Of a DNA stretch of 64,000 bases, positions 70 to 36,286 are shown piece by piece. The notes below the pieces were generated by a model, which was given only the letters and a program-made list of their open reading frames with translations, was not told the origin of the DNA and made no database searches. How positions within the stretch are numbered: position 1 is the stretch's first letter; the number at the start of each line of letters is the position of its first letter. Location of the stretch: the NCBI RefSeq assembly GCF_965216145.1, contig NZ_OZ244149.1, forward strand, positions 1,100,797 to 1,164,796, in the 5' to 3' direction. Position numbers and translations under genes: made by a program. This DNA comes from Candidatus Palauibacter sp. Lineage in GTDB: Bacteria > Gemmatimonadota > Gemmatimonadetes > Palauibacterales > Palauibacteraceae.

Positions 70-492
70 CTACGCGTTCCGTGCGATCCAATCGGTGGGA
101 GTGAAAGCCCCGGCCCGATCGATCAGCTCGCCATCCCACGACACGACCTCGGCACCCAGCCAATCGGCGAGGGCGGCGTAGAGAGCGTCCCCGGAGCGCA
201 GAAAGCCTCGAGTGCCGACCTCGAGGGCCTGTTGGAGCATCGCCCGGTTCAATGAGTACACGGTGACCAGCGGAGAGCCCAGCATTTGATCGGCCAGGCT
301 CCGGCCGCGCTCGGCGTCGCGCAGCCTCCGGGCGAGCGCGCAGGCAATCTCCAACTTCGCCAGCTCCGGGAGAGAAATCGGGAGCTCTCGTTCCACTACC
401 AGGGAGAGAAAGGCTCGGCTTGAGTCCGACAATCCATCGGTTGCGTCTGCCGCCGAGACCCACACGCTGGCGTCAATGACCAGCGTCGTCAC
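70..492 (-). CDS. vapC: PIN-domain toxin (VapC-like) of a type II toxin-antitoxin pair
   Basis: Translation VTTLVIDASVWVSA...LVTVYSLNRAML...GDALYAALADWLGAEVVSWD has PIN-domain acidic residues at the expected positions. GTG start at 490-492 overlaps the antitoxin stop (GTGA overlap). Confidence 0.6.
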   Translation of the reverse strand: MTTLVIDASVWVSAADATDGLSDSSRAFLSLVVERELPISLPELAKLEIACALARRLRDAERGRSLADQMLGSPLVTVYSLNRAMLQQALEVGTRGFLRSGDALYAALADWLGAEVVSWDGELIDRAGAFTPTDWIARNA

Positions 493-755
493 TCGGCTCC
501 CAACCGGTTCCGGTCGGCGGCCAGCTCTTCCCTCGCCGAACGGCCCCCAGGCGCACGCCTGAGCGCTTCGTCGGCCGCATCGAGCCAGGAGCGCAGCCAT
601 GCTTTGGGGGCCTCACGGGTTTCCGCACCTTCGTCCTCGCTCAGCCAGCGCCGATAGAGTTGCGTCGTGACTTCGCGAATGGTAAGGCCCCGCAGAGCTG
701 CCTCCGACTTGATCTGCCGGTACAGGTCATCCGGGATATCGATGGTCGCTTTCAT
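489..755 (-). CDS. ribbon-helix-helix antitoxin (VapB/CopG-like)
   Basis: MKATIDIPDDLYRQIKSEAALRGLTIREVTTQLYRRWL is a typical RHH antitoxin N-terminus. It sits immediately upstream of, and overlaps, the PIN gene. The long ORF-track version (489..908) is trimmed to the internal ATG at 753-755. Confidence 0.55.
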   Translation of the reverse strand: MKATIDIPDDLYRQIKSEAALRGLTIREVTTQLYRRWLSEDEGAETREAPKAWLRSWLDAADEALRRAPGGRSAREELAADRNRLGAE

Positions 756-787
756 GGTACCATGATAGCTGTATTGCCGTATACCCG

Positions 788-3646: not shown

Positions 3647-3846
3647 CGGGCACTCTCCTGGGAGTCGCTGGAATTGGGGAAAGCAAGTTGCGTGGTGCTG
3701 GGGGACAATCGCCAGCGGGTGCCTCGGTTGGACCTCACGTGGGACGTGCGCCCCACTTGCCACGCGATCGGGTTCGGACGGGGCGTATGCGCAGGGGACG
3801 GTGCTTCACCGACTCCACCCGGGCACATGCCCCGCTTCCATTCCCG

Positions 3847-5265
3847 CTATTGCTGCAGGCGCAGCACGAAGAGGCCCTCGTTCCAGCTCGTGGCGACGAA
3901 GAAGCCGCTCTCGAAGTAGGGGTAGGTCGACCAGGAGCCGCGGAACTCCACGTTATTGTGTTCGGGCACGGTGTCAAAATAGCCCGCTTCCACGGGGTTC
4001 TCTCGGTCCGAGATGTCGATGATCCGGATGCCGAATGTGTAGTTGGAGTGGTAGATCACATCCTCGTGCACGTACAGGTTGTGGTCGATAGCTTCGGTGG
4101 GCCCCAGGTGCTCTCTCGCCAGAACCGGATCGTCGAGGTCGGTTAGATCCCAAACGAGCAGCCGCGTCCGCGAGACAGAGAACCCCTCATCGAGTTCATC
4201 GTTCTGATAGAAGTACTGGTGGTCCTCGCTGAGCCACCCCTGATGGATGTAGGCGTGATCGGCGTATGTACCGGTTGAGATGGTGATCGGGTTCTCCTTG
4301 TCGGTCACGTCCGACACTACAATGGCGGTCTCGTTCGAGCCGACGCAGATTTCCTGGCCCGCGTATTCCGAATCGGGGCCGCGATACACGACGCACTGAA
4401 CGTCGTGGGTGTAGCCTGGAATATAAAAACCCGTCGTCGTTTCAGCGTAGCAGCCCGCGAAAGTCGGATTCTTCGGGTCCGAGAGATCGATCATGTGCAG
4501 GCCGCTCCCGCATGTGTCGCCGCCACTGTTGCTACCGACGGCATAGGCGAAGCCGGTCTCTTCGTTGATCGCGATGTTGTGGACCGAACTCAGCCGCGAG
4601 TACCACGCATCGGGCTGCAACTCGGTGAACTCCGTCAACCCGCGCAGCCGTGTGAGGTCGAGAACCTGCATACCGTGGCCGGGGCTCAGGTCGGCGACGA
4701 CGTACACGTGATCCGCGTACACCTTCATGTCGCGCCACCACGAGGTACCCGTGTGCGAGGCGAGGTACGCGATCGGTCGCGGCTCGACCGGATTGGAGAG
4801 ATCGACAATGGAAAGTCCGTCGTGGCGGCCCACAAGAGCATACTCCACCCCGGTCTGAGGGTCGGTCCACCCCCAAATGTCGTTCACGTTCCACCACTCT
4901 TCCGGCCCCGAGGGCGGCGTCCCCGGTCTCAAGTCAGGCATGGATACCTGTCCCACGAGATCGACCCCCTCGCACGGAAAGCTGCCGGCCAGCCCATCGA
5001 CGCATATTGCCTCCGGGGCGACTGGAGGTGGCGGCGGTGGAGGTGGCGGCGGTGGAGGTGGCGGCGGTGGAGGTGGCGGCGGTGGAGGTGGCGGCGGTGG
5101 TGGTGGCGGCGGTGGAGGTGGCGGCGGCGGCTCGACGGGATCGGGGCCCGCGGGACCTGGGCCGGTCGGAGCCGGGGCGTCTTCACCGCATGCACCAAGG
5201 GCCACACTCAGCATGAGTACCGGAATCGCCGGTCGGATTCGCATAGAGGATGAATGGGCTCTCAT
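3847..5265 (-). CDS. choice-of-anchor B / LVIVD-repeat beta-propeller lipoprotein, paralog 1, with ~44-residue polyproline linker
   Basis: Lipoprotein-like leader MRAHSSSMRIRPAIPVLMLSVALGAC. SD GGGAGG 8 nt upstream of the ATG at 5263-5265. Conserved NDIWGWTDP, VYADHVYVVAD, YAVGSNSGG, HQGW motifs shared with the paralogs at 5425, 6933 and 31237. Confidence 0.75.
   Translation of the reverse strand: MRAHSSSMRIRPAIPVLMLSVALGACGEDAPAPTGPGPAGPDPVEPPPPPPPPPPPPPPPPPPPPPPPPPPPPPPPPPPPPVAPEAICVDGLAGSFPCEGVDLVGQVSMPDLRPGTPPSGPEEWWNVNDIWGWTDPQTGVEYALVGRHDGLSIVDLSNPVEPRPIAYLASHTGTSWWRDMKVYADHVYVVADLSPGHGMQVLDLTRLRGLTEFTELQPDAWYSRLSSVHNIAINEETGFAYAVGSNSGGDTCGSGLHMIDLSDPKNPTFAGCYAETTTGFYIPGYTHDVQCVVYRGPDSEYAGQEICVGSNETAIVVSDVTDKENPITISTGTYADHAYIHQGWLSEDHQYFYQNDELDEGFSVSRTRLLVWDLTDLDDPVLAREHLGPTEAIDHNLYVHEDVIYHSNYTFGIRIIDISDRENPVEAGYFDTVPEHNNVEFRGSWSTYPYFESGFFVATSWNEGLFVLRLQQ
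5024..5130. repeat. 15-bp tandem repeat (GGTGGAGGTGGCGGC)n, about 7 units, encoding poly-Pro on the minus strand
   Basis: Direct reading of the sequence. It is in-frame within the paralog-1 CDS. The plus-strand poly-Gly ORF here is an antisense artifact. Confidence 0.9.
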
Positions 5266-5424
5266 CTGACTATGCCTCCCGTCAACTGGAACGACGATCC
5301 GACGCACGAGTTGCTGCGGGTCGACGCGGTTTCGACGTAGATCTTGCGACCCAACCACCGTCGTACGTGCAACTTACACGTTTAGGCCTCTCCCTCGCGC
5401 CCCTAAACTGGAGGGGACTTGTCG
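5266..5424. repeat. ~160-bp intergenic cassette, copy A (near-identical to 6775..6932)
   Basis: Carries hairpins CCCCTAAACTGGAGGGG and ACGTGTAAGTTGCACGT. It lies downstream of paralog 2 and upstream (promoter/RBS side) of paralog 1. Confidence 0.85.
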
Positions 5425-6774
5425 CTATTGCTGCAGGCGCAGGACGAAGATGCCCTCACGCCAACTGGTGGCGACGAAGAGGCCGCTCTCGAACCAGGGG
5501 TAGATCGACCAGGAGCCGAATCCGCGAGGTTCGGGCACGGTGTCGAAGAACCCGCGTTCCAGGGGGTTCGCAGGATCCGCGATATCTATGACCCGGACTC
5601 CGAAGTCATAGTTGGAGTGGTAGATCAGGTCGCCGTGGACATACAGGTTGTGGTCGGTCTCGGTGCCCGGGCCCAGATGCTCCTTCGCCAGGATCGGGTC
5701 ATCGAGGTCGGTGAGGTCCCACACGAGCATGCGCGTGCGCGGTGTCAGCCCTTGAGCCTCGTCCCCTTCGTCGTTCTGGTAGAAATAGCCCTGGTCTGAG
5801 CTGAGCCAGCCCTGGTGGACGTAGCCATAGTCCGCGTACGTAGCGGTCGACAGGGTGATCGGATTCGTCTTGTCGGTCACGTCCGACACCACAATGGCGA
5901 TCTCGTTCGAGCCGACGCAGATCTCGCGGCCCGCATGTTCCGTATCAGGACCGCGATACACGACGCACTGGACATCGTGGGTGTAACCCGTACCGACCCA
6001 CCCGGTGCCTTCTACGGCGTGGCACCCCGCGAAACTCGGATTCTTCGGGTCCGTGAGGTCGATCATGTGCAGACCACCCCCGCACGTGTCGCCGCCGGAG
6101 TTGCTCCCGACGGCGTAGGCGAAGCCTGTCTCTTCGTTGATCGCGACGTTGTGGACCGCGCTCACGCGCGTGTACCGCCCGTCCGCCTGCATCTCCGTGA
6201 ACTCCGTCAGCCCGCGAAGTCGGGTAAGGTCGAGAATCTGCATGCCGTGGCCGGCTATGGCGTCGGCGACGACGTATACGTGGTCCGCGTACACTTTCAT
6301 GTCGCGCCAGATGCTCGAACCGGTATGGGAAGCGAGGTACGCGATCGGCCGGGGTTCGACGGGGTTCGAGAGATCGACGATCGAGAGTCCGTCATCGCGG
6401 CCGACGAGGGCGTACTCGACCCCCGTCTCCGGGTCGGTCCACCCCCAAATGTCGTTCAGGACAGAGGCCGGCCGCGCCGGTCTCAAGTCGCTCGGCGACA
6501 CGCGTGCCACCAGATCTACGCCATCGCACGGAAAGATGCCGGCAAGGCCACCGACACATGGTGTCTCTGTGGTGGGGAGCGGCGGTGGAGGCGGCGGTGG
6601 GGGAGGCGGCGGGGGCGGCGCGGGGGGAGGCGGCGGTGGCGCAAGCGTGGGCGGGGCGAGCGGATCCGGGGTCACCGGGCCCGCAGCGTCCTCTCCGCAT
6701 GCGCCGAGGACCACGCTCAGCATGAGTACCGGAATCGCCGGTCGGATTCGCATAGAGGATGAATGGGCTCTCAT
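5425..6774 (-). CDS. choice-of-anchor B / LVIVD-repeat lipoprotein, paralog 2 (Pro-rich linker)
   Basis: Same leader MRAHSSSMRIRPAIPVLMLSVVLGAC and the same motif set, roughly 75-80% identical to paralog 1. Linker is PPPPPPAPPPPPPPPPPPPPLP. Confidence 0.75.
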   Translation of the reverse strand: MRAHSSSMRIRPAIPVLMLSVVLGACGEDAAGPVTPDPLAPPTLAPPPPPPAPPPPPPPPPPPPPLPTTETPCVGGLAGIFPCDGVDLVARVSPSDLRPARPASVLNDIWGWTDPETGVEYALVGRDDGLSIVDLSNPVEPRPIAYLASHTGSSIWRDMKVYADHVYVVADAIAGHGMQILDLTRLRGLTEFTEMQADGRYTRVSAVHNVAINEETGFAYAVGSNSGGDTCGGGLHMIDLTDPKNPSFAGCHAVEGTGWVGTGYTHDVQCVVYRGPDTEHAGREICVGSNEIAIVVSDVTDKTNPITLSTATYADYGYVHQGWLSSDQGYFYQNDEGDEAQGLTPRTRMLVWDLTDLDDPILAKEHLGPGTETDHNLYVHGDLIYHSNYDFGVRVIDIADPANPLERGFFDTVPEPRGFGSWSIYPWFESGLFVATSWREGIFVLRLQQ

Positions 6775-6932
6775 CTGACCATGCCTCCCGTCAACTGGAA
6801 CGACGATCCGACGCAGGAGTTGCTGCGGATCGACGCGGTGTCGACGTAGATCTTGCGACCCAACCACCGTCGTACGTGCAACTTACACGTTTAGGCCTCT
6901 CCCTCGCGCCCCTAAACTGGAGGGGACTGTCG
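6775..6932. repeat. ~160-bp intergenic cassette, copy B
   Basis: Aligns almost base for base with 5266..5424 (a handful of substitutions). Confidence 0.85.
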
Positions 6933-8219
6933 CTATTGCTGGAGTCGCAGGACGAAGAGGCCCTCGTCCCGGCTGGTGGCGACGAAGAGGCCGCTCTCGA
7001 ACCAGGGGTAGGTCGACCAGGAGCCGCCGAACGTCTGGTCGTCATGGTCCGGTACCGTGTCGAAGAAGCCGCGCTCCACGGGATTCGCCGGATTCGAGAT
7101 GTCGAGGATCCGCACGCCGAACGTGTAGTTGGAGTGGTAGATCACATCCTCGTGGACGTAGATGTTGTGGTCGATGGCTCCGGTGGGGCCCAGGTGCTCC
7201 GTGACGAGGACCGGATCGTCCAGATCGACCATGTCCCATACCAGCATGCGCGTGCGTGAGACCCGGTTGTTTCTTTCATCCCCTTCATCGTTCTGGTAGA
7301 AATACCGGTGATCCTCGCTCAGCCATCCCTGATGGATGTAGTCGTGGTCGGCGTAGGAGGCGGTCGACAACGTCGTCGGGTTCGCCTTGTCGGTCACGTC
7401 CGACACGACGACCGCGGTCTCATTCGAGCCCACGCAGATCTCGCGGCCCGCGTGTTCCGCGTCGGGACCTCGATAGACGACGCACTGGACATCGTGGGTG
7501 TATCCAGTCCCATGCCAACCGGTGCCTGCCTCGGCGTGGCAACCCGCGAAGGTAGGGTTCTTCGGATCCGAGAGGTCGATCATGTGCAGGCCGCCCCCGC
7601 ACGTTTCGCCACCGGAGTTGCTTCCGACGGCGTACGCGAAGCCGGTCTCTTCGTTGATCGCGAGGTTGTGGACAGCGCTCACATTCCGGTATCTGGCGTC
7701 CGCGCTCAGTTCCGTGAACTCAGTCAACTCACGAAGCCGCGTGAGGTCGAGCACCTGGATCCCGTGCCCCGTAATCTCCGAGACGACGTACACGTGATCC
7801 GCATACACTTTCATGTCCCGCCAGAGGGTCTCCGAGAAGGCGGAGGGCATGAACGCGACCGGCCTCGGTTCGACCGGGTTGGAGAGATCGACGATCGAGA
7901 GGCCGTCGAAGTGCCCGACGAGGGCGTACTCCACCCCCGTCTGCGGATCGGTCCACCCCCAGATGTCGTTCAGGGAGGTGGCCATCCTTCCCGGCCGCAA
8001 CTCGCGCGGAAGCAGCCACCCCACCAGGTCCACGCCCTCGCACGGGAACCCGCGGGCCGTGCCGCCCTGGCAGGGGGCGAGCAGCGTGGCGACGGGTTCG
8101 GGCGGCGGCGGTTCCGGCGGATCGACCGGACCCGTCGCGCTTTCGCCGCACGCCACCGAGAGAAAAGCCAGCAGGAGAGTCGCGCCTCGCACCGAGGCGG
8201 GGATGCGCTTGGCAGTCAT
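6933..8219 (-). CDS. choice-of-anchor B / LVIVD-repeat lipoprotein, paralog 3 (short Pro linker)
   Basis: Leader MTAKRIPASVRGATLLLAFLSVACGES, then the conserved domain. The ORF-track N-terminal extension (to 8702) is Arg/Gly-rich junk that overlaps the upstream gene. Start taken at the ATG at 8217-8219. Confidence 0.7.
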   Translation of the reverse strand: MTAKRIPASVRGATLLLAFLSVACGESATGPVDPPEPPPPEPVATLLAPCQGGTARGFPCEGVDLVGWLLPRELRPGRMATSLNDIWGWTDPQTGVEYALVGHFDGLSIVDLSNPVEPRPVAFMPSAFSETLWRDMKVYADHVYVVSEITGHGIQVLDLTRLRELTEFTELSADARYRNVSAVHNLAINEETGFAYAVGSNSGGETCGGGLHMIDLSDPKNPTFAGCHAEAGTGWHGTGYTHDVQCVVYRGPDAEHAGREICVGSNETAVVVSDVTDKANPTTLSTASYADHDYIHQGWLSEDHRYFYQNDEGDERNNRVSRTRMLVWDMVDLDDPVLVTEHLGPTGAIDHNIYVHEDVIYHSNYTFGVRILDISNPANPVERGFFDTVPDHDDQTFGGSWSTYPWFESGLFVATSRDEGLFVLRLQQ

Positions 8220-8242
8220 CTGTTCGACATCCTCCCGTCCCC

Positions 8243-9397
8243 TCAATTCGTCAGCAGCAGCCGCGGCCCGAGGAGTCGGTGCGGGTCGGCGTCCGGCTTC
8301 GGGCTGAACTTGTTGATCCAGCCCCCGCTGTACGACGCGATGTACAGATTCCCATCCTCGTCCATGTCGAGTTGGTGCGGCAGCGACAGCCCGCCCGGCC
8401 AGGTACCGCGGCCGATCGCACCCGCCTGCCCGTAGGCGCCCCAGTAATCCTGGAGGACGCCATCCCGGTCGTACTTGAGCACGCGGTTCAGGCTCGCGTC
8501 CAGGACCCACACGGCGCCGTTCACATCCAGCCAGATGTTCACGGGATCGAAAATGTTCGGCCACTCCTCGATGAACTCCCCGTCGTGCGTGAACAGCTGA
8601 AGGCGCTCGTTCTGGCGGTCCGCGACGTAGACCCGGTCTTCGTCCACTGCGAGACCGTGCAGAAGATCGAACTCGCCGGGCCCTGTACCGAGCGCGCCCC
8701 ATTGCATGACGAACTCACCGTCCTCCGAGTACTTGACGATGCGCGAGTTCCAGTACCCGTCGGCGAGCAGGAAGCTCCCGTCCGGCAGGAACGCCAGCTT
8801 CGACGGCCACCCATAAGTATAAGGGTCCCAGTCGGATCGCGCGCGCGCGGCCTCTCGCGTCTTGGGATGGTCCCGCTCGCCCAGGCGCATGACGATCTCG
8901 CTGCCGTCGTTCGTGAACTTGACGACCTGCATGTGCCCCTGCCCGCCGCCGCTGTCGATCACCCACACGTGGCGGTCGGGGTCGTAGGGGCTGATGTACG
9001 CCTGGTGCGGCAGCGTGAAGATCGAGTCCCACTGCGCCCACTGTTCGACGATCTCGCCGTTCCCGTTCGCGACGACGACGAAGTTCGTCCGGCGGATCTG
9101 TCCGTTGCGGGGGGCCGAGCGGTCGGCGGGCCAGTCGCCGCGGGTGACGACGATGATGCGGTCCGCGTGGTCCACGGCCACTCCGGCCACCTGCCCCCAG
9201 CCCCACTCGTCGTCGTGATTGGGCGCGGGCTTCCACCAGCCCTCGACGGGGTCGTAGGCGCCGGTGCGGTCGTCGCCGCCCTTCACAGTCGTCGCGTTCG
9301 CCGGGTTCGCGGCCCGGCCTTCTTCGCCGCACGCCCAGGAGGCGGCCACGGCCGCCGCCCCGATCGCGACGAGGAGCGTCAGCGGGCGAGTCTTCAT
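8243..9397 (-). CDS. NHL-repeat (six-bladed beta-propeller) lipoprotein
   Basis: MKTRPLTLLVAIGAAAVAASWAC lipobox. Repeated blade motifs (VAVDxxDRIIVVTRG, VYVADRQNERLQLF, LYIASYSGGWINKF) typical of NHL / PAL-like propellers. Confidence 0.65.
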   Translation of the reverse strand: MKTRPLTLLVAIGAAAVAASWACGEEGRAANPANATTVKGGDDRTGAYDPVEGWWKPAPNHDDEWGWGQVAGVAVDHADRIIVVTRGDWPADRSAPRNGQIRRTNFVVVANGNGEIVEQWAQWDSIFTLPHQAYISPYDPDRHVWVIDSGGGQGHMQVVKFTNDGSEIVMRLGERDHPKTREAARARSDWDPYTYGWPSKLAFLPDGSFLLADGYWNSRIVKYSEDGEFVMQWGALGTGPGEFDLLHGLAVDEDRVYVADRQNERLQLFTHDGEFIEEWPNIFDPVNIWLDVNGAVWVLDASLNRVLKYDRDGVLQDYWGAYGQAGAIGRGTWPGGLSLPHQLDMDEDGNLYIASYSGGWINKFSPKPDADPHRLLGPRLLLTN

Positions 9398-11442
9398 TTA
9401 TCCCCCTTCGTCTGCTTCCTGTCCGTCTTCCCGGTTTCGGCCCCGTTTTCGGTCGTCACCCTCGCCGCGGGGGCCCATGGATCGTTGACGCCGGCGCCGG
9501 GGCAGGCGTCGCCCGTGTCGAGGAAGTGGGTGTGGAGGCACTCGAGCGTGGAGCCCAGTTCAGTGAGCAGTTCAACGGTCTCGGGGTAAGGCACGCGGGT
9601 GAAGAACCCGGCCCGACCGCCGCGCGCCATGTCCGCCGTGGACTGTCCGAGACGCGTGATGGCCGTGACATCCGCGCCTTGCGAGACCAGATATTCGATG
9701 AGTTCGTTGTCGCCGCGTGATGCCGCGTAGTGCATCGGCGTATAGAGCCAGGAATCGAGCCGATTCACGTCGGCGCCCAGTTCCTCGATCAGGTACTTCA
9801 CCGCCGGGATGAACTGATTGGGACGGCTGCGGACGCTGAACGCGCCGAGACCCAGATATCCCCCGCCCGCGGCGGCGTGCAGCGGCCAGGCGTTGGGTGC
9901 GCCCTCGGGGATCCCGGGCAGCGCCGAGTCCTCCTGCTGCCGGCCGTCCTGCTGCCGGCGCTCCCGCATCCCGACTTCCGGCCAGCGCGTGGGGATGTTC
10001 GGGTCCGCCCCGTGCGCGACGAGCAGCTTCATGGCCTCGAGGTCCTGCGCGAAGGCCGCGCGCCAGAACGGCGTCGCGCCGGTGAGGTCGATCCCCATCT
10101 TCGTGAGCCCGAACTCCCAGTACCACAGGTGCGTGTTCAGCCGGGGGTCGGGGTCCGCGCCGGCTTCGAGCAGGGCGCGCAGCACCTCCATGTGCCCGGC
10201 CTGCTGGCGGTCCTGAGCACGCGGCTGAGGGTAGTTGGACTTCGGGGCCCACTGCGTCTGCAGCGCGGCGAACAGGGGGGTGGCGCCGTCGGTCGAGGCG
10301 GCGAGATCCGGGTCGGCGCCGCGTTCGATGAGGACGAGCGAGAAATCGAACTGGCCGTTGAGCATCGCCATGAGGAGCGGGCTGGTCGCGTCCGCGCTCA
10401 CCTGGTCGATGTCCGCGCCGCCGTCGAGAAGCGCCGCGGCCGCCTCGATGTGCCCTTCCCGCGCGGCGTGCAGGAGCGCGGTCGTGCCGCCGGTCATGCC
10501 GACAAGGACTTCGCGGTACGGGGGGCGCACGACGTCGGGGCCGCCGGGGTAGTCGGGCCCGACGCGGGCGAGCGAGTGCGCGCCGACCTCGCCGACATCG
10601 AAGCCGGAACGGAGGAACTCGCGCTGCGCGTGGATGGCCGCCTGGACGTGCGCCGGGGCAGGCTCGCCCGGCCATTCGGCTTTGGAGTCCACCTCCGGTC
10701 CGTACGGTCCGAGCGTCTCGGCCGGCGCGCCGATCCAGTCCCGGAAGCGGCGGTTTGCTTCACGGTCGAGCGCCAGACTGGGCAGGACGTCGACCACGGC
10801 GGTCGCTATGCCGGGGTCGGCCCCGGCCTCGAGCAGCGCGGCCACGGCCGCCGCCCGGTTCGCCGCAGCGGCGAACATCAGGGGTGTCTGCCCCGCCGAC
10901 CCTTCGCGGGCGTTGGGGTCCGCGCCGTGGTCGAGCAGCGCGGTCACGGCCGCCGTGCCGTCCACGGCGCCCGCGGCGAGGTGCAACGCGGTCACGCCGC
11001 TGTTCGTCGTCGCGGCGTTCGGGTCGGCCCTCGCCTCGAGCAGGAGCGCGACGACGGCGCCGTGCCCCCCGCAGCCAGCCATATGGAGCGGCGTGTAGCG
11101 ACCGATGCGCGTCCCGGCATCCACCGCCGCGCCCGCGTCGATCAGCGCCCGGGCCGCCTCCGCATGGCCTCGCTCGGCGGCAAGATGCAGCGCGGTGATC
11201 CCGTCGCCCCGCGCCGCGTTCACGTCCGCGCCCTCCCCCACGAGCGCCCGCACGACCTCGACCTGCCCGTCCCGGGCGGCATCCAGCAGCCGATCGTCCC
11301 CACCCGACGATCCCGTCTGCGCCGCTGCCCCCACCGGGAGGAGCGCCAAAATCAGGAGCGCCGAAATCAGGAGCGTGCCCATGGCGGAGTTCGCTCCGGG
11401 CGCCATTCCGCCCTTCGCTCCGCGCCTCATGCCGCGCCTCAT
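9394..11442 (-). CDS. secreted ankyrin-repeat protein
   Basis: Multiple ANK units (GITALHLAAERGHAEAARALIDAGAAVD, GVTALHLAAG..., GQTPLMFAAAANRAAAVAALLEAGADP). N-terminal hydrophobic signal. 4-bp overlaps with both neighbours. Exact start (11442 or the internal ATG at 11382) is uncertain. Confidence 0.75.
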   Translation of the reverse strand: MRRGMRRGAKGGMAPGANSAMGTLLISALLILALLPVGAAAQTGSSGGDDRLLDAARDGQVEVVRALVGEGADVNAARGDGITALHLAAERGHAEAARALIDAGAAVDAGTRIGRYTPLHMAGCGGHGAVVALLLEARADPNAATTNSGVTALHLAAGAVDGTAAVTALLDHGADPNAREGSAGQTPLMFAAAANRAAAVAALLEAGADPGIATAVVDVLPSLALDREANRRFRDWIGAPAETLGPYGPEVDSKAEWPGEPAPAHVQAAIHAQREFLRSGFDVGEVGAHSLARVGPDYPGGPDVVRPPYREVLVGMTGGTTALLHAAREGHIEAAAALLDGGADIDQVSADATSPLLMAMLNGQFDFSLVLIERGADPDLAASTDGATPLFAALQTQWAPKSNYPQPRAQDRQQAGHMEVLRALLEAGADPDPRLNTHLWYWEFGLTKMGIDLTGATPFWRAAFAQDLEAMKLLVAHGADPNIPTRWPEVGMRERRQQDGRQQEDSALPGIPEGAPNAWPLHAAAGGGYLGLGAFSVRSRPNQFIPAVKYLIEELGADVNRLDSWLYTPMHYAASRGDNELIEYLVSQGADVTAITRLGQSTADMARGGRAGFFTRVPYPETVELLTELGSTLECLHTHFLDTGDACPGAGVNDPWAPAARVTTENGAETGKTDRKQTKGDK

Positions 11443-12866
11443 CGGGCGCCGCTCCCGCCGGGGGCCGCCCCGCCCGCGAAGTCGAGCGGCAAGGCACCGT
11501 CGCTGTCACCGAACGTGCTCAACTCCGGGTGTCCGATCTTCCGCATCAGGCTCACGAACGCGTTCGCCATCGGCGTCCCGTCGGGAGCCCGATGGTGCAC
11601 ACCCCCCTCCAGCGCGCCGTTCGCCCCGCCCAGGAAGAGGAGAGGCGCCCTCCGGTGGTTGTGGAGGTTCCCATCGGCCATCGGAGAGCCCCAGACGATC
11701 GCCGTCCTGTCGAGCAGCGACGCGTCGCCTTCCACGGTGCCGCCCAGCTTCTCGAGGAAGTAGGCGAGTTGGCCCAGCCGATAGGTGTTGATCCGGTTGA
11801 AGTCCATGATGTCCTCGGGGACGTTGCCGTGGTGCGAGGCCCCGTGGACGGACTTCGTCGTCCCGCTGTCGGGAAAAGCCCGGTTCGACTGATCGAACCC
11901 GGTCTTGAAGGTGATGACCCGCGTCAGATCGGTCTGCAGCGCGAGCAACTGCAGATCGAACATGAGCCGCATGTGTTCCTCGAAGGAGTCGGGGATCCCG
12001 GACGGCGCCTCCGGCATCTCCCGCTCCTCACCGCTCGCGTTGCGCGCCTCGACGAGCTGGATCCTGCGCTCGATCTCGCGGATATGGTCGATATACTCGT
12101 CCAGCGCGATCCGGTCCGCCGAGCCGAGCGCACTCCTGAGCCGCGCGACCTCGGTGGCGATCCAGTCGATCATGCTGCGGTCGGTGCGGCGGCGCGCCGC
12201 GCGATCCGCGGCGGTGTCGCCCGCCCCGAACAGCCGCTCGAAGACGACGCGCGGCTCCCGGATCGCCGGGAGCGGCAGGTCGGGCGAGGCCCACGCGAGC
12301 GAGGTCGTGTAGGCGCAGTGGTAGTTGTACGCGCAGCCGCCGCCCCGATCGATCCCCTCGATGCACAGTTCCAGCGACGGGAGCACCGTCTCCTGCCCGA
12401 AGCGTTGCGCGTGCAGCTGGTCGAGCGAAGTCCCGAGGTAGATGTCGGACCCCTGCGTCTGCTTCGGGTGCGCCTGGGTGAGGAACACCGCCGTCGAGCG
12501 GTCGTGGTCCCCGCCGATCTCCTCCGCGCGCGAGGCCTCGGCCGAGCGGCAGTCCGTGTTGCTGACGATCGTCATGTACCCGCGGAACGCCTCCAGCGGC
12601 TTGAGCTGGCTGTCCGCCACGAGTTCGAAGTCCCGGCCGGTCGTCCCCGGTGCGAACAGGTGCCGGGCGTCGCCCCAGTCGCTCGAGCCCGCCGCCCCCA
12701 TCGACTCCTCGACGCAGACCAGGCGCGTGAAGTTCGCGGCCTTCATCGGGTCGGCCCACAGCCGCCCTGCGGGAATCATCGCATCGAGAAGGGGCAGGGC
12801 CACGCTGGCGCCGGCGCCACGCAGGAAGGTGCGACGCGAGAGGTGTGTGCCGGTGACGAAGTTCAT
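11439..12866 (-). CDS. DUF1552 family protein with Tat signal
   Basis: N-terminus MNFVTGTHLSRRTFLRGAGASVALPLLDAMIP (twin-arginine motif). Family signature regions GGDHxRS, GGCAYxY, HHGN. It is the standard partner of DUF1592-family proteins. Confidence 0.7.
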   Translation of the reverse strand: MNFVTGTHLSRRTFLRGAGASVALPLLDAMIPAGRLWADPMKAANFTRLVCVEESMGAAGSSDWGDARHLFAPGTTGRDFELVADSQLKPLEAFRGYMTIVSNTDCRSAEASRAEEIGGDHDRSTAVFLTQAHPKQTQGSDIYLGTSLDQLHAQRFGQETVLPSLELCIEGIDRGGGCAYNYHCAYTTSLAWASPDLPLPAIREPRVVFERLFGAGDTAADRAARRRTDRSMIDWIATEVARLRSALGSADRIALDEYIDHIREIERRIQLVEARNASGEEREMPEAPSGIPDSFEEHMRLMFDLQLLALQTDLTRVITFKTGFDQSNRAFPDSGTTKSVHGASHHGNVPEDIMDFNRINTYRLGQLAYFLEKLGGTVEGDASLLDRTAIVWGSPMADGNLHNHRRAPLLFLGGANGALEGGVHHRAPDGTPMANAFVSLMRKIGHPELSTFGDSDGALPLDFAGGAAPGGSGAR

Positions 12867-15394
12867 GATCCAGCTCCTTCTGTCATTCTGCTCTCATTCT
12901 CTCGACTCTCACCCTCTCGACTCGCGCCCTCTCGGCTCGCGTCCCCCTGCTCGTCCACGACGGGCTGGGGGCGCACCATCCGGAACGCGTCGCTGTTCAC
13001 GACGCCGAAGATGAACGAGGACATCCGGTAGTCGTCCGCTTCCGCTTCCCGCGCGATCGCCCGGATCCCCGGTTCGTCGAAGTACTCCACGCGCCGCCCG
13101 ATCGCGTACGCCAAGAGGTGCGACGCGAAGTTCCGGACGAGCGGAATCGGCCGCTTCATCAGCACGTCGACAAGATCGGCCGGCGTGCTCACGTCCGTCC
13201 CGTCGTAGAAGGTGCCGCGCGTGTCGAGCGGGACGCCGTTCTCGCGGATCCGCACCTGTCCCGTCACGTCGTAGTTGTCGAGCGCGAGGCCGATCGGGTC
13301 CATGAAGCGGTGACAGGAGCGACACGTCGGATTCGCCCGGTGCATCTCCAGCCGTTCGCGGGTCGTGAGCAGCCGCCCACCTCGCGCCGATTCCGTGTCA
13401 TCGAAGGCGGGGATGTTGGGCGGCGGCGGCGGCGGCGGAGTACCCATGAGCACCTCCATCACCCACTTGCCTCGCAGCACCGGCGAGGTCCGCGCCGACA
13501 TGGACGTGAGGAGCAGCACGCTCCCGTGCCCCAGCACCCCGCGCCGGCTTTCGTCCGGGTAGGACACGCGCCGGAACCCGGGCCCCGAGACCCCCGGAAT
13601 CCCGTAGTGAGCCGCGAGCCGCTCGTTCAGGAAGGTGTAGTCCGCAGTGAACAGTTCCAGCAGGCTCCGATCCTCGCGCACGAGCCGGTCGAACAGGAGT
13701 TGCGTCTCCCGCACCAGATCTTCGCGCAGCTGCCCCGTGAAGTCCGGGTACAGGTAGGGCTCCGGCTGGTTGTCTTCCGCGTCCTGCAGCCGCAGCCACT
13801 GCGAGGCGAAGCGCGTCGACAGCGCCTCCGCGCGCGGGTCCGCCAGCATGCGGCGCACCTGAGCTTCGAGGACCGCGGGGTCCGAGAGCCGGCCGTCCGC
13901 GGCGAGGTCGAGCAGTTCATCGTCCGGGATCGTCGCCCAGAGGAAGAAGGAGAGCCGTGTCGCGAGATCGAGGTCCGAGATCGCGTAGCTCTCGTCGCCG
14001 GCCACACCCTCTGGAGCCCGCTCGAGGCGGAAGATGAACGACGGGCTGGCGAGAATCGCCTGCAGCGCCGTCCGGACCCCGACCTCGAAGCCTTCCTCCG
14101 CCGCAGCCCCGTCGTAGAACGACATCGGCCCGGCGATATCCTCCTCCGTGACCGGCCTCCGGTACGCCTCGCGCGCGAGGCGCGTGACGATCTCCGTCGC
14201 GCAGGCACGCGCCTCCCCGGAAGCCGCCGATGCGGGCCGGGCGGGACGGCAGCTGAAGAGCGTGCGGCGGCTCGCCGTCTCGGAGAGCCCCGCGGTGCGC
14301 CGCGGGCCCGTGATCATCAGCTCGCTCAAGTGCGGAAGCGCCGTGATCCCGTAGTTCGCCCACGACTGCGAGTCTTCCCCTCCCACGAACGACCAGCCCG
14401 GCGTCTTCAGGCGGTCCTCGTACGGCCCCTCGATCGTCCGCACGAACGCGGCCGCGATCTGCCGCTGGCCCGCCCGCACGAAGATCGGCTCGGTCCGGAT
14501 CGGGTAGGTCGAGCGGCTTCCGTGCTCGAGGCCGAGCAGCGCGACTCCCTCGCCGTCGATCGAGATGTCGACATCCTGGAAGCCGGTCCCCTGGCCGAAG
14601 AGCGTCTCGATCGTGAACACGTACTCCCCGTCGACCGGGAAGTCGTGCGTCACGACGATCCCTCCGCGGGTCCCGTACGGCGTGCCCTCGAGATGATCCC
14701 AGGCGTGCTGCGAGACTTCGATCGGGTTCGTGTATTTCGCCGAACGCGACAGGGCGTCGGGGTTGCCGACCGCGAGCCGGCTCACCTCGGTGGCAGCCCG
14801 CAGGTACGCTTCGAGCAGCGTAGTCGAGAGGCCCTGCGCGTCGGACATGTTGTCGAAGGCGCCCAGATACGTGTCCGCCGGGAGCCAGCGGCCGGCGTCG
14901 ATCTCGAGGTCGAGGAGGTCGCGGATGACGCGCTCGTACTCGGCCCGGTTCAAGCGCTGGAAGCGCCGCGCGCCGGGGTTCGGATCGTGTGCGGCCGCGC
15001 GGTCTACCACCGTCTCCAGCGTCTCGACGAGCGCCAGAAGCGTGTCCGGAGACGGTCGACGCTGGCCCGGCGGCGGCATCATCCCCGCACGCAGCTTGCG
15101 GATCATCTTTTCGGCGGTGGGCGCTCGCTCGTGCGCCGCGTCCACATCGAACGTCTCCAGCGTGAGGTTTCCCCGCAGCAGGCGCTCGTTGTGACAGCGC
15201 ACGCAGTACCGCTGGACAACATCGGTGAGGTCGGCGAAGGCGGGGGTCGGCGTCGGCGGGGTGGCGTCGACGTGTCCGGTCACGATCTGCGGCGGTCGCG
15301 CGACGGGCGCGACATCGGGCGCACGGCTCTCCGACGGCCCGCCCGCAACGGCAAGCCAGAACCACAGGATCGCGCCCACACTCAATGACTTCAT
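12863..15394 (-). CDS. DUF1592/DUF1587/DUF1595/DUF1588/DUF1585 multidomain protein with cytochrome-c-like CxxCH motif (PSCyt-type)
   Basis: Signal MKSLSVGAILWFWLAVAG. CVRCHN heme-binding-like motif followed by RKLRAGMMPP. Paired with DUF1552 as in Planctomycetes, Verrucomicrobia and Gemmatimonadota genomes. Start taken at the internal ATG (15392-15394) rather than the track's 15442. Confidence 0.7.
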   Translation of the reverse strand: MKSLSVGAILWFWLAVAGGPSESRAPDVAPVARPPQIVTGHVDATPPTPTPAFADLTDVVQRYCVRCHNERLLRGNLTLETFDVDAAHERAPTAEKMIRKLRAGMMPPPGQRRPSPDTLLALVETLETVVDRAAAHDPNPGARRFQRLNRAEYERVIRDLLDLEIDAGRWLPADTYLGAFDNMSDAQGLSTTLLEAYLRAATEVSRLAVGNPDALSRSAKYTNPIEVSQHAWDHLEGTPYGTRGGIVVTHDFPVDGEYVFTIETLFGQGTGFQDVDISIDGEGVALLGLEHGSRSTYPIRTEPIFVRAGQRQIAAAFVRTIEGPYEDRLKTPGWSFVGGEDSQSWANYGITALPHLSELMITGPRRTAGLSETASRRTLFSCRPARPASAASGEARACATEIVTRLAREAYRRPVTEEDIAGPMSFYDGAAAEEGFEVGVRTALQAILASPSFIFRLERAPEGVAGDESYAISDLDLATRLSFFLWATIPDDELLDLAADGRLSDPAVLEAQVRRMLADPRAEALSTRFASQWLRLQDAEDNQPEPYLYPDFTGQLREDLVRETQLLFDRLVREDRSLLELFTADYTFLNERLAAHYGIPGVSGPGFRRVSYPDESRRGVLGHGSVLLLTSMSARTSPVLRGKWVMEVLMGTPPPPPPPNIPAFDDTESARGGRLLTTRERLEMHRANPTCRSCHRFMDPIGLALDNYDVTGQVRIRENGVPLDTRGTFYDGTDVSTPADLVDVLMKRPIPLVRNFASHLLAYAIGRRVEYFDEPGIRAIAREAEADDYRMSSFIFGVVNSDAFRMVRPQPVVDEQGDASREGASREGESRENESRMTEGAGS

Positions 15395-16037: not shown

Positions 16038-17288
16038 CTACCTCCGTCCCGCGGGCACGAGTCGGACGATGCCGGTTGCGGGGCCGTCGATGTCGCGCGT
16101 TTCCCCATCGATGGCGACGTAGACGAAGCCGTCCGGTCCCTGGCGCACGTCGCGGATGCGGCCGATCCCCTGGAGGAGCGTCTCCTCGTGCGCCACCTCC
16201 TGCCCCTCCATCCGCAGCCGCGCGAGACGCCGGCCGCTCAGACCGCCGACGATCATGTCCCCGCGCCACTCGGGGAAGGCCTCGCCGGTGTAGAAGAGCA
16301 TCCCGGAGACGCCGATCGACGGGACCCAGATGTAGTCCGGCGGTTCCATGCCCTCCATGAGCGTCGCCGAGTGGATGCGCGCGCCGGTCCGGTAGTTCAC
16401 CCCGTAGCCGACCACGGGCCAGCCGTAGTTGAGGCCGGGCTCGATCAGGTTCAGTTCGTCCCCGCCCTGCGGGCCGTGTTCGTTCTGCCACAGTTCGCCC
16501 GTCTCCGGATGGACCGCCATCCCCTGCGCGTTCCGGTGGCCCCACGTCCAGATCTCGGGGTGGATCCCGTCGCGGCCCACGAACGGGTTGTCCTGCGGGA
16601 TCCGACCGTCGTCGTGGATGCGGATCGTGCTTCCGTTGTGATTGGAGAGATCCTGCGCCGGGTGCGCCATGAGGTCGCCGGCCGAGGGCCACTGCCGGTC
16701 GCCCAACGTCATGAACAGGTAGCCGTCGTGGTCGAACACGAGGCGCCCGCCCCACATCGAGCTTCTATCCGTCCCGTTCCCGAACGCGTCCGCGTGGAAC
16801 AGTTCCTCGACGTCGGTCAGGCGGTCGTTCTCGAACCGGCCCCGGGCGATCGCGATCGTGCCCAGCGAGTCCGCGCCCGGTTTCACGTAGCTCAGGTAGA
16901 GCAGCCGGTTCGTGGCGAAGTCCGGGTGGAGGATCGCGTCGCGCAGGCCAGCCTGCTCGAAGCCGCTCATGGAGCGCGCGCCGCGGCCCAGCGCCCGGAT
17001 CTCCGGCAGGCCCTCCACGGAGCCGGGGAGTAGCGCACCGTCCCGGATGATGCGAAGCCGGCCGGGCCGCTCGGTGACGAGCAGATCGCCCTCCGGCGTG
17101 AAGACCATCGAGAACGGGCGCACGAGGCCGTCGGCGACTTCTTCCACCCGGAAATCGTGGTGCGCTGTCTGGATGATGTCGCCGGCTGCCCCTTCCGGGT
17201 CGCCCGCAGCACACCCCGCGAATGGCAGAAGCAGCAGCAGGCAAGCCGTGCGTTCGAAGCTGTGCAGGGTGCGGGGGATATGGGTCAT
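16038..17288 (-). CDS. PQQ-dependent sugar dehydrogenase (soluble glucose/sorbosone dehydrogenase family) lipoprotein
   Basis: Motifs NHNGSTIRIHDDG, GHRNAQGMAVHPETGELW, DELNLIEPGLNYGWP. Leader MTHIPRTLHSFERTACLLLLLPFAGC. Confidence 0.8.
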   Translation of the reverse strand: MTHIPRTLHSFERTACLLLLLPFAGCAAGDPEGAAGDIIQTAHHDFRVEEVADGLVRPFSMVFTPEGDLLVTERPGRLRIIRDGALLPGSVEGLPEIRALGRGARSMSGFEQAGLRDAILHPDFATNRLLYLSYVKPGADSLGTIAIARGRFENDRLTDVEELFHADAFGNGTDRSSMWGGRLVFDHDGYLFMTLGDRQWPSAGDLMAHPAQDLSNHNGSTIRIHDDGRIPQDNPFVGRDGIHPEIWTWGHRNAQGMAVHPETGELWQNEHGPQGGDELNLIEPGLNYGWPVVGYGVNYRTGARIHSATLMEGMEPPDYIWVPSIGVSGMLFYTGEAFPEWRGDMIVGGLSGRRLARLRMEGQEVAHEETLLQGIGRIRDVRQGPDGFVYVAIDGETRDIDGPATGIVRLVPAGRR

Positions 17289-17373
17289 CGCAGGCTCGGT
17301 CTCGTCCGTGTACACGCGAGTAATCGGGCTCCTATACTAAGGGCGTCCCAGCAGAGCCTGACAGGAGGTTGAA

Positions 17374-18663
17374 ATGCGTCGAACCACAAGATCCCCATCG
17401 GTCACCCTCACCCGCCTCGCAATCCTCCTTCCGACTGCCGGACTTCTGGCGGGCTGCGCGCCGGACGGCGGCGGAGATGGCGCCGGCGCGGTCGCGTTCG
17501 AGGGCGCCCGCGTGATCACGGGCGACGGCTCGGTGATCGAGTCGGCCGTGCTCGTGGTCGAGGACGGACAGTTCGCGGCGGTCGGGGCGAGCGGCGAGGT
17601 CGAGGTGCCCGCCGGCGCCGAGCGGGTCGATCTCGGCGGCAAGACGGTCATGCCGGCGCTCGTGAACGCGCACATCCACCTCGCCTCCGAACGCGACGAA
17701 CGGACCACGCAGCTCCAGCACATGGCGTACTACGGGGCGGGGGCCGTCGTGAGCCTCGGCACCGAGAGCGGGAACGTCGGGTTCGAGATGCGAGAGGAAC
17801 TCGTCCCGGACGCGGCGCGTTCCAAGACGGCCGGGCGCGGGATCACGATGCCGGAGCCCGGTCGCTCCGATGTCCCCTACTGGATCGAGACGGAGGACGA
17901 GGCACGGGCTGCGGTTCGGGAACTGGCCGAACGGCAGGTCGACATCGTCAAGATCTGGGTCGACGACCGCGGGGGGCAGTACGAGAGGCTCTCCCCGGAA
18001 CTCTACGGCGCGATCATCGACGAGGCGCACCAGCACGGGCTCATGGTCACGGCGCACGTCTTCTACCTGGAAGACGCCAAGGGGCTGCTCGAGGCTGGGA
18101 TCGATATCTTCGCCCACGGCGTGCGGGATCTCGACGCCGATGACGAACTCATGGAACTGTGGGCGGAGCGCCCGGAGGTGGTGCTCGTCCCCAACCTCCC
18201 CGGACCCGGGGTGGCGCTCGACCTGAGCTGGCTGGGCGGCACCGTTCCCGCCGACCAGCTGGCGGAGATGCAGGCGGCATCCGCGGACAATCCCGCCGCG
18301 CAGGCGTCGTTCGGCATCCAGGCGCGGAACCTGGCCCGCTTCGCCGAGGCCGGCGTGACGATCGCCTTCGGCACGGACGGCAACGCGGCCTGGGCGCCGC
18401 ACCAGGAGATGGAGGACATGGTCCGCTCCGGGATGACGGCGGGCGACGTCATCGTGGCCGCGACGAAGACCTCCGCCGAACTGATGAACTGGAACGGACT
18501 CGGCGAGATCGCCGCCGGGAAGAGCGCCGACTTCATCGTGCTCGACGCGAACCCGCTCGACGACATCACGAACTCGCGCCAGATCGACGCGGTCTACCTG
18601 CGGGGGGCGATGGTCGACCGCGAGGGGATCAGCGCCCGCATGCTCGGCGCGGGAACCGAGTGA
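17374..18663 (+). CDS. amidohydrolase family protein (lipoprotein)
   Basis: VNAHIHL metal-binding start and FGTDGNAAW ... AGKSADFIVLD C-terminal amidohydrolase motifs. Strong RBS AGGAGG upstream. Leader with LLAGCAP lipobox. Confidence 0.75.
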   Translation: MRRTTRSPSVTLTRLAILLPTAGLLAGCAPDGGGDGAGAVAFEGARVITGDGSVIESAVLVVEDGQFAAVGASGEVEVPAGAERVDLGGKTVMPALVNAHIHLASERDERTTQLQHMAYYGAGAVVSLGTESGNVGFEMREELVPDAARSKTAGRGITMPEPGRSDVPYWIETEDEARAAVRELAERQVDIVKIWVDDRGGQYERLSPELYGAIIDEAHQHGLMVTAHVFYLEDAKGLLEAGIDIFAHGVRDLDADDELMELWAERPEVVLVPNLPGPGVALDLSWLGGTVPADQLAEMQAASADNPAAQASFGIQARNLARFAEAGVTIAFGTDGNAAWAPHQEMEDMVRSGMTAGDVIVAATKTSAELMNWNGLGEIAAGKSADFIVLDANPLDDITNSRQIDAVYLRGAMVDREGISARMLGAGTE

Positions 18664-23332: not shown

Positions 23333-24607
23333 TCACAGGAGCAGCGACGCGAGGTAGGCGACGCCGGTCCCGCCGAGGAGGACGAGCCCCACCCAGGTGA
23401 GGGCGACCATGCGACGGCCCGGCCGGTGCTCCGCCGGCACCGCGGACGAGGTCACGGCGCGCAGGTTGAAGTACCCGAGGATGGGCGCGGTGAGGAAGGC
23501 CACGATCGTGGCGAAGTCCACCATCGCGGTCAGGCTGCCGGAGAAGCCGAGGATGATGAAGAAGGCGATGAGGGGGAGCGCGATCATGCTCCCCCAGTAG
23601 ACCCTGCCCACCCGGGTGACGGTCTCCGCCGCGACGCTACCGCGCAGGTTCGCCAACGTGCGTTCGATCGCCCGCGGAAAACCGTCCGTCACGGCGAGGA
23701 GGCTCGAGAAGATCGTCGCCATCGCCGCTACGAGGACGATGGGACGGGACCAGGAGCCGAGCGTCGTGCTGTACATGTCGACCAGCTGCGTCGAGAACAC
23801 GGCGCCGGCGCCGCTCAGCGTCACATCCGCCTGGTAGAGGACCGTGGCCCCGACCGACACGAAGACGAGGGCGAGGATACCGGTCCCGACAAACCCGACC
23901 AGGAAGTCACGTTTCGCGTCCGCGACCGATGTCCGGGCGCCCGTCGACTTGTCCTTGGCCAGCGTCCACAGACTGCTCCACACCGCCACGTCGACGGGCG
24001 ACGGCATCCATCCGATGAGGGCGAGGAGAAACGCGAACGGCACGACGGTGCCCACGACGTCGCCCGGCCACAGGGCGAGCGTCGACAGGTCCGCGCGCGG
24101 AGCCGCCACGAGCGCGGTCGCCACGGTCGAGAGGACGAGCATCGCGAGCAGGATCTTGATCGTGATGTCGAGGCCCCGGTAGCGCCCCACGACGAGGACC
24201 GCCACGCAGGCGCTCATCAGCACGGCCGCGGTCGCCGCCAGCGGCCACTCCGCCCCGAACGCGTAGCGCGTGAGGAACGCCATGAACATCGCCAGGGCCG
24301 CGAGCGAGATGATCGCGGTGATGAGGGTGATGGCGAGGAAGAGCCACAGCGCCCAGCGGCCGATGTCGCGGTATCCCTCGACCAGGCTCCGCCTCGTGGC
24401 GGCCGCGTACCGCGCCCCGTACTCGAAGAAGGGATACTTGAGGATGAGCGCGAAGACGATCACGCCGACGAAGGCGAACCCCGCCTCCGCCCCCGCGCGC
24501 GTGGACTGCACGAGGTGGGAGACCCCGATGGAGGTCGCGGCCCAGATGAGGCCGGGCCCGAAGCTCTTCCAGAAGCTGGAGCCGGTGCGCGCGGCAGGTT
24601 CGCTCAT
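23333..24607 (-). CDS. NRAMP family divalent-metal transporter (MntH-like)
   Basis: Start MSEPAARTGSSFWKSFGPGLIWAATSIGVSHLVQSTRAGAEAGF matches the NRAMP N-terminal consensus. About 11 TM segments. Confidence 0.7.
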   Translation of the reverse strand: MSEPAARTGSSFWKSFGPGLIWAATSIGVSHLVQSTRAGAEAGFAFVGVIVFALILKYPFFEYGARYAAATRRSLVEGYRDIGRWALWLFLAITLITAIISLAALAMFMAFLTRYAFGAEWPLAATAAVLMSACVAVLVVGRYRGLDITIKILLAMLVLSTVATALVAAPRADLSTLALWPGDVVGTVVPFAFLLALIGWMPSPVDVAVWSSLWTLAKDKSTGARTSVADAKRDFLVGFVGTGILALVFVSVGATVLYQADVTLSGAGAVFSTQLVDMYSTTLGSWSRPIVLVAAMATIFSSLLAVTDGFPRAIERTLANLRGSVAAETVTRVGRVYWGSMIALPLIAFFIILGFSGSLTAMVDFATIVAFLTAPILGYFNLRAVTSSAVPAEHRPGRRMVALTWVGLVLLGGTGVAYLASLLL

Positions 24608-24681
24608 TGGGTCTTCTCCGGCCGGACCGTGGGTGGCGGGGCAAAGGTCGGACGAACCTGAGGATGAACCTTGATCGCCCC

Positions 24682-31043: not shown

Positions 31044-31236
31044 GACTACCTCCTGCTGATAGCGGGATTCCGTGCAGATTCTGAACGTACGCCCGAAAAC
31101 GCACCCGGCGAAACCGTAGCCCGCGCGGCGGCGTGCGGCGCGGCGCATGGGGAAGCGGCGGACGCTGGCGTGTCGGTCGGGTGACGGCGCAGCTTGCATC
31201 GAGCTTGAGCGAACGGAATTCCGGGAGAGGTGCCTC

Positions 31237-36229: not shown

Positions 36230-36286
36230 GACGTGTCCTCGAAGTCTCTGTTGAGCGACGGTCGTTGCGGGCGAGCGCTCGGCGAT

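Follow-up and report, generated by a model that had tools for sequence, protein, structure and literature searches.

We analysed a 64-kb stretch of DNA from Candidatus Palauibacter sp. (Gemmatimonadota; 69% G+C), hereafter referred to as the window, in which a trio of genes occurs twice on the minus strand and in the same order: a gene for a DUF1592-type protein, a gene for a DUF1552 (HXXSHH) protein and a gene for an exported ankyrin-repeat (ANK) protein. Copy 1 occupies 9394..15394 and copy 2 occupies 42505..48205, and no other ANK genes are present in the window. The genes of the two copies are as follows.

12863..15394, minus strand: copy 1 DUF1592-type protein (843 aa from the ATG), with a signal peptide, an N-terminal c-type cytochrome-like domain (CVRCH, MPP) and the Pfam domains PSD3, PSD5, PSD4, PSCyt3 (CRSCH) and PSD2
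11439..12866, minus strand: copy 1 DUF1552/HXXSHH protein (475 aa), with a twin-arginine (Tat) signal and a predicted alkaline-phosphatase-superfamily fold
9394..11442, minus strand: copy 1 exported ANK protein (682 aa), with a signal peptide and two ANK blocks that have a variable linker between them
45704..48205, minus strand: copy 2 DUF1592-type protein (833 aa), with CQRCH and CRSCH
44285..45676, minus strand: copy 2 DUF1552/HXXSHH protein (463 aa), with a Tat motif and an upstream 27-nt spacer carrying GAGGAGG
42505..44285, minus strand: copy 2 ANK gene, in two open reading frames (ORFs), with a start that overlaps the DUF1552 stop (TGATG) and a 1-base deletion near 43330

The initial annotation had placed two copies of the module at these coordinates on the minus strand in one order, and this was borne out together with the Pfam content that it gave. 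Its description of the genes as joined by overlaps holds for both junctions of copy 1 (DUF1592 to DUF1552 and DUF1552 to ANK, each ATGA) and for the DUF1552 to ANK junction of copy 2, but not for the DUF1592 to DUF1552 junction of copy 2, where the spacer leaves no overlap. Similarly, the protein identity of about 55–60% that it estimated between the copies is right for DUF1592 and DUF1552 (56% each) but too high for ANK (46%). It mentions neither the frameshift in the ANK gene of copy 2 nor the gene string into which copy 1 runs on. The window holds two anciently duplicated copies of a three-gene module. Scans for promoters and terminators around both copies detected sites no more numerous than in shuffled sequence, and left the transcription units uninformed.

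Relatives of the trio were collected in two scans. A one-genome-per-GTDB-species scan with both DUF1552 copies gave 532 relatives, of which the best 80 (60–95% identity), designated type A, were examined. A metagenome scan seeded with a three-sequence alignment of types N, B and A gave 80 more loci; no part of a seven-sequence alignment that included distant DUF1552 types was sufficiently conserved to seed such a scan. For the census of neighbouring genes, ORFs in high-GC loci were chosen by the rule GC3 > GC1 > GC2 (G+C content by codon position). The type-B loci other than the evaluable ones are truncated at a contig edge.

In type A, an ANK homologue was found directly downstream of DUF1552 on the same strand in all 80 of the best relatives, which belong to Gemmatimonadota, Acidobacteriota and Gammaproteobacteria such as Pseudohongiella. 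The DUF1592 gene lies upstream of DUF1552 wherever the contig extends, and several of these loci are on megabase contigs. Type B was first met in locus L032 as a second pair of 38–42% identity that has an ANK gene of 499 aa upstream in divergent orientation, and two further type-B proteins again have ANK upstream, adjoining or 3 kb off. In the metagenome scan, ANK was detected beside the type-B pair in 27 of 28 evaluable loci (13 downstream, 14 upstream and divergent), the sole exception being L177, which has room on both sides and no ANK. A protein search of plasmid records identified type N in the soil isolate Novosphingobium sp. KACC 22771, which carries DUF1592, DUF1552 (41–44% identity) and ANK (444 aa) at about 943–948 kb of the 1.33-Mb replicon NZ_CP117882.1; ANK was downstream in 31/31 evaluable type-N loci of the metagenome scan. 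Altogether, ANK adjoins the pair in 138 of 139 evaluable loci, in three subfamilies (38–57% identity between them) and two arrangements, with about 140 trio loci in four bacterial lineages. Of the 143 ANK matches in the 2.2 Mb of DNA fetched, none is more than 4 kb from a pair. Because the trio recurs in other genomes, its association is not due to chance. Two modules stand in tandem on one contig in L065, L078, L165 and L178; in the last two, one ANK gene is flanked on both sides by a type-B pair.

Across loci, the three genes covary in their identity to the window copy (r about 0.95), as expected if the genes of the trio have been inherited, and sometimes transferred, together. DUF1552 is up to 88% identical between Gemmatimonadota and Acidobacteriota records, and sequence comparison suggests that the whole trio has been transferred between phyla. 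All three genes are 77–88% identical between the window and loci labelled Acidobacteriota (L008–L012, L014, L016 and L017), and 60–73% identical between the window and Gammaproteobacteria (Pseudohongiella). The labels of short contigs of metagenome-assembled genomes (MAGs) may mislead; the megabase contigs give the same cross-phylum pattern.

The link to ANK has a limit. Distant pairs, 24–31% identical to the window DUF1552 and sampled from a Planctomyces plasmid, Chondrinema (Bacteroidota), Sphingobium and two Planctomycete/Verrucomicrobial metagenome contexts, have no ANK gene within 7–8 kb. ANK is therefore a clade-specific third partner and not a general partner of DUF1592/DUF1552 pairs, in a DUF1552 family that comprises 12,846 clusters at 50% identity (matches at E <= 0.001). 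One feature with a similar distribution is a CX5C loop in DUF1552 (C178 and C184), which types A, B and N all have and 120/120 Planctomycete-type sequences lack. Among the 90 full-length 50%-identity DUF1552 representatives nearest to the query, 35 carry the loop, and those without it include sequences at 41–44% identity. Candidate roles for the loop are a disulfide, a metal site or an ANK contact. In L090–L098 (Planctomycete/Verrucomicrobial contigs), the DUF1592/DUF1552 pair adjoins an analogous PSCyt2-PSD1/DUF1501 pair, and the DUF1592 proteins are much longer (1406–1606 aa).

The ANK protein itself matches the ankyrin-repeat families above the Pfam threshold (PF00023/PF12796), with 190 bits for Ank and 188 bits for Ank_2 in copy 1 and matches in both halves of copy 2. 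Because the ANK proteins of types A, N and B align end to end (32–35% identity) and share one plan, namely, an AxA-type signal peptide, an ANK block, a linker and a second ANK block, they appear to represent a single lineage kept with the pair since before the three types split. At the DUF1552/ANK junction, a 4-nt NTGA overlap, in which ANK starts with A/G/T-TG over the TGA stop of DUF1552, was found in 76 of 81 type-A cases, and 24 of 31 type-N junctions overlap, 23 of them by 8 nt. This conservation of the start/stop overlap across relatives argues for the translational coupling of ANK to DUF1552. Where ANK is divergent in type B, a gap of roughly 100–430 bp, mostly 100–260 bp, separates its match from that of DUF1592. 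All three products of the trio carry export signals, that of ANK being a plain Sec-type signal peptide, and no beta-barrel or lipobox was found in the trio; an outer-membrane location was rejected on the lack of both features. A role for ANK as a heme carrier is unlikely, as no potential ligand residue is kept across ANK types.

The DUF1592-type protein of both copies contains PF07631, PF07627, PF07624, PF07637 and PF07626, all above the gathering threshold (E 1e-18 to 1e-48), in the order PSD3-PSD5-PSD4-PSCyt3-PSD2. Of 127 aligned orthologues of types A, N and B, 126 retain two CxxCH motifs (C64/C67/H68 and C691/C694/H695) and the sequence M106-P107-P108. The N-terminal cytochrome region of the window copies scores below the Pfam cut-offs (Cytochrome_CBB3, 20.5 vs 27; PSCyt1, 21.5 vs 22), and a type-B orthologue scores just over that of Cytochrome_CBB3 (27.2 vs 27). 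A sequence search of the PDB gave nothing meaningful for this protein. Judging from the motifs, the DUF1592-type protein most likely binds two c-type hemes.

The DUF1552 protein matches PF07586 (DUF1552/HXXSHH) with 271 and 294 bits in the two copies against a cut-off of 30. The TAT_signal family scores slightly under its Pfam cut-off (19.4 and 22.0 vs 22.7), and the twin arginine R11-R12 is at least 90% conserved. H341, S344 and H345 of the HxxSHH motif are invariant and belong to a His/Asp-rich set that is invariant across the family (H121, D149, H298, D304, D313, H341, S344, H345, D386 and H402). A sequence search of the PDB detected no chain related to DUF1552 at the sequence level. The predicted model has the core alpha/beta fold of the alkaline phosphatase superfamily, and matches sulfatases, NPP, LtaS and phosphonate monoester hydrolases. 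The Ser/Thr/formylglycine nucleophile of this superfamily is not evident in the DUF1552 alignment; by secondary structure, H121 begins the helix where the nucleophile would be expected.

The genes next to the module provide a redox context in one subfamily. In type N, genes for cytochrome c' (PF01322; 16 loci) and cytochrome b561 (PF01292; 14 loci) follow ANK on the same strand (L102, L103, L105, L109, L111–L113, L115, L117 and L121–L127), and the distant ANK-less Sphingobium pair (L089, 9423..10534) is likewise followed by cytochrome c' and b561. Pyrroloquinoline quinone (PQQ)-type dehydrogenases recur beside types A and B, and full PQQ propeller dehydrogenases adjoin several type-B modules. 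A homologue of a PQQ-type glucose/sorbosone dehydrogenase (16038..17315, minus strand) is located just upstream of copy 1, as it is of the closest orthologues (L004–L007 and L045). In four type-A loci (L042, L044, L056 and L069), DUF1592 and DUF1552 are separated by an inserted gene for a SusC-like TonB-dependent receptor (CarboxypepD_reg, Plug and barrel) and a SusD/RagB gene (about 5520..9975 in L044), with a GH116-like gene upstream; this insertion hints that the module handles an imported substrate. TonB-dependent receptors also recur near other modules.

The results of the survey and the motif analysis bear on the remaining proposals of the initial annotation. An old, maintained three-part unit is upheld by the presence of ANK beside the pair in nearly all evaluable loci of the three subfamilies, and the suggested translational coupling is favoured by the overlaps in types A and N. 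The heme or redox role read from CxxCH gains support from the invariance of these motifs and from the cytochrome c'/b561 neighbours. For the proposed periplasmic or outer-membrane complex, the export signals of all three proteins agree with the former, while nothing points to the outer membrane. The gene-neighbourhood survey that it recommended detected ANK in types A, B and N, but none at the sampled Planctomycete, Verrucomicrobial, Bacteroidota and Sphingobium-type pairs.

In conjunction, the chances appear about even that the module forms a metalloprotein complex in the periplasm that is linked to cytochromes and has an ankyrin subunit of its own. In this model, we infer a physical association of three exported proteins. 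The DUF1592-type protein would be a Sec-exported multidomain protein with two c-type hemes presumed to occupy its CxxCH motifs, and DUF1552 would be exported by Tat, its His/Asp set forming a putative metal centre that acts on a substrate. ANK, exported by Sec and made in fixed proportion to DUF1552 via the start/stop overlap, would be a subunit dedicated to protein binding, which keeps the DUF1552/DUF1592 pair in place, stabilises it or docks it. Electron transfer, by a presumed redox chemistry and in a direction equally presumed, would link the DUF1552 site to the respiratory chain via the DUF1592 hemes, and in some lineages also via the co-encoded cytochrome c' and membrane cytochrome b561. 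The putative substrate would be a compound taken up across the outer membrane. A more specific form of this model is tentative and, in our estimate, rather unlikely: an alkaline-phosphatase-fold metalloprotein connected to the quinone pool by its diheme partner, with cytochrome c'/b561 as a further link in some lineages, and dependent on the ankyrin subunit for assembly or docking. If true, it would be the first redox enzyme on the alkaline-phosphatase fold and would represent a new class of periplasmic enzyme.

Several points weigh against the cytochrome-linked complex. To our knowledge, there is no known redox enzyme in the alkaline phosphatase superfamily, and the evidence for the module comes from sequence comparison and predicted structure. 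The DUF1552 model is moderately confident (predicted local distance difference test, pLDDT, 69.9). The AlphaFold2 model of DUF1592, for which the alignment consisted of the two window copies only, was not used (pLDDT 31; predicted TM-score 0.24), and because this model failed, the support for the cytochrome folds comes from motifs and weak matches to Pfam. The canonical Asp after strand 1 is not conserved in DUF1552, the position being Asn-Gly in types B, P and N or Met/His-Gly in type A; since this Asp is a metal-binding residue, DUF1552 could be non-catalytic. In addition, no cytochrome c'/b561 genes were found near the modules of types A and B, those of the window included, and the alignment of ANK contains no His, Cys or Met conserved across all types.

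The main alternative is a hydrolase or transferase system for nutrient processing, in which an organic ester, once imported, would be processed by DUF1552 in the manner of a sulfatase or phosphodiesterase, with DUF1592 binding the substrate or sensing heme and ANK serving as a scaffold. The hydrolases and transferases matched by the DUF1552 fold, the SusC-like/SusD insertions with their GH116-like genes, the recurrent TonB-dependent receptors and the sulfatase genes reported near PSCyt genes (He et al., PMC5615132) are all in agreement with such a system. However, the canonical nucleophile is not evident and the first-strand Asp is not conserved, so that the chemistry of DUF1552 need not be hydrolytic, and neither the two invariant CxxCH motifs nor the cytochrome c'/b561 genes in the same gene string (type N and Sphingobium), for which a pure hydrolase has no obvious need, are readily accommodated; we consider this alternative doubtful. 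A variant of the cytochrome-linked model would make ANK an assembly or maturation factor that acts transiently on DUF1552 after Tat export or on DUF1592 during heme loading. The catalase/ankyrin precedents Cj1386 and AnkB (PMC10294975) and the divergent position of ANK in some type-B loci, by which strict co-translation is not required, speak for this variant, but the overlapping start and stop codons of types A and N point to matched amounts, which are more typical of subunits, and ANK conserves no ligand-type residue. Such a factor is therefore judged unlikely, below the hydrolase system.

Finally, ANK could be a eukaryote-like effector by which sponge symbionts manipulate their host, located beside the pair by coincidence. 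Sponge symbionts are rich in ANK and leucine-rich-repeat (LRR) proteins, the window is from Candidatus Palauibacter, many of the close matches are MAGs with names that suggest sponges, and a large LRR protein adjoins the module in some of these loci. However, the same partner is found in the soil Novosphingobium isolate, on Pseudohongiella chromosomes and on many metagenome contigs, its start overlaps the DUF1552 stop in most loci, and it has been retained where rearrangement placed it on the opposite side of the pair. Neither the lack of any ANK gene away from a pair in the DNA fetched nor the plain Sec-type signal peptide fits an effector, and this explanation is poorly supported and very improbable.

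With respect to known systems, the DUF1592/DUF1552 pair itself is already known but uncharacterized. In some Verrucomicrobia genomes, DUF1552 genes (up to 17 per MAG) and their PSCyt/PSD partners were reported to be numerous, with nothing known of their function and no ankyrin mentioned (He et al. 2017, PMC5615132). The PSCyt3/PSD and DUF1552 pair of Planctomycetota/Verrucomicrobiota has the same PSD3-PSD5-PSD4-PSCyt3-PSD2 protein followed by HXXSHH in the same order and adjacency, but no third partner in the pairs described, whereas the module described here has the exported ankyrin and the CX5C loop of DUF1552. The PSCyt2/PSD1 (DUF1549/DUF1553) and DUF1501 pair likewise consists of a multidomain CxxCH protein and then an uncharacterized protein, but belongs to other families, with no ANK partner seen there. 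Homology between DUF1552 and DUF1501 is not claimed: the DUF1552 profile, compared with one DUF1501 sequence by hhalign, gave a probability of 1.9%, which is not significant. Compared with the alkaline phosphatase superfamily (sulfatases, NPP, LtaS/LtaP, phosphonate monoester hydrolases and phosphoethanolamine transferases), the DUF1552 model shares the core fold but has 8–14% identity and a His-rich invariant set in place of the canonical Asp and nucleophile. Cbp2D of Cellvibrio japonicus, a proposed electron donor of lytic polysaccharide monooxygenase with an X183 cytochrome c domain and DUF1587, resembles the DUF1592-type protein as a secreted protein combining a c-type cytochrome with PSD3/DUF1587, but differs in its CBM2, FN3 and other X domains, and no DUF1552 or ANK partner is reported (PMC8981238).

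Periplasmic ankyrins are known to bind and promote heme catalases (PMC10294975). In these pairs (KatB-AnkB of P. aeruginosa, KatA-Cj1386 of C. jejuni, ank-katE of Leptospira and CatB-AnkB of Xanthomonas), an exported ankyrin, which either interacts with the neighbouring protein or is required for it, is encoded beside a periplasmic heme protein (PMC10294975). The layout of the module is the same, but its partner is DUF1592/DUF1552 and not a catalase, and its ANK is much larger (444–682 aa, two blocks). The catalase ankyrins may thus be regarded as the nearest precedent for ANK by analogy, not by membership. Few exported bacterial ankyrins have a defined bacterial partner, and the trio would be the second such class after the catalase ankyrins. 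In the literature searched, we found no description of the conserved exported ankyrin partner, the DUF1552 fold or the link to cytochrome c'/b561. Together with the invariant heme motifs of DUF1592, the fixed ankyrin partner in a large clade, the DUF1552 fold and the cytochrome c'/b561 pair provide four handles on the large DUF1552 family. In addition, Novosphingobium sp. KACC 22771 represents a cultured host of the module, and the naturally paired orthologue sets, about 140 in number, are usable for coevolution analysis and complex modelling.

The ANK gene of copy 2 is interrupted in the window. One base is missing at about 43330 (43326..43345, minus strand; …CTGCTCATGGC-ATGATCAAC…), which gives two ORFs, 43326..44285 (319 aa) and 42505..43332 (274 aa), whose stop and start form ATGA. 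Because intact 593-aa proteins from related genomes share a 90%-identity cluster with copy-2 ANK, and in another genome the gene is broken at other places, the break is specific to this assembly: the gene has very recently become a pseudogene, or the assembly is in error at this point.

Downstream of the trio, the two copies differ: unrelated genes come next after copy 2, unlike the longer string of copy 1, which contains the following genes.

8243..9397, minus strand: NHL-repeat beta-propeller (384 aa), accessory and outside the invariant core, with a start that overlaps the copy-1 ANK stop (ATGA)
788..8702, minus strand: co-directional genes found downstream of copy 1 only, three choice-of-anchor-B/LVIVD genes and an S9 peptidase gene, a lineage-specific context
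6933..8702, 5425..6882 and 3847..5373, minus strand: the choice-of-anchor-B/LVIVD ORFs
788..3805, minus strand: the S9 peptidase

The ORF at 6933..8702 overlaps the NHL gene, and its true start is probably further downstream. The string of choice-of-anchor-B and S9 peptidase genes is confined to the closest Palauibacter-type loci. An NHL homologue was detected in 29 of the 80 type-A loci, directly after ANK in 19 of them, and the propeller may be a facultative fourth component. NHL propellers were also found near L085, L147, L149, L157 and L173 (types A and B), in varied position and orientation. A leucine-rich-repeat protein of about 1000 aa is encoded beside the module in L004 (Candidatus Palauibacter irciniicola; 336..3353) and in five other type-A loci. 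Exported peptidases (two S9 and one M14) and amidohydrolases are abundant in the window (788..3805, 24550..27399, 28974..31337, 17374..18663 and 34403..36286), which is consistent with a peptide-scavenging lifestyle.

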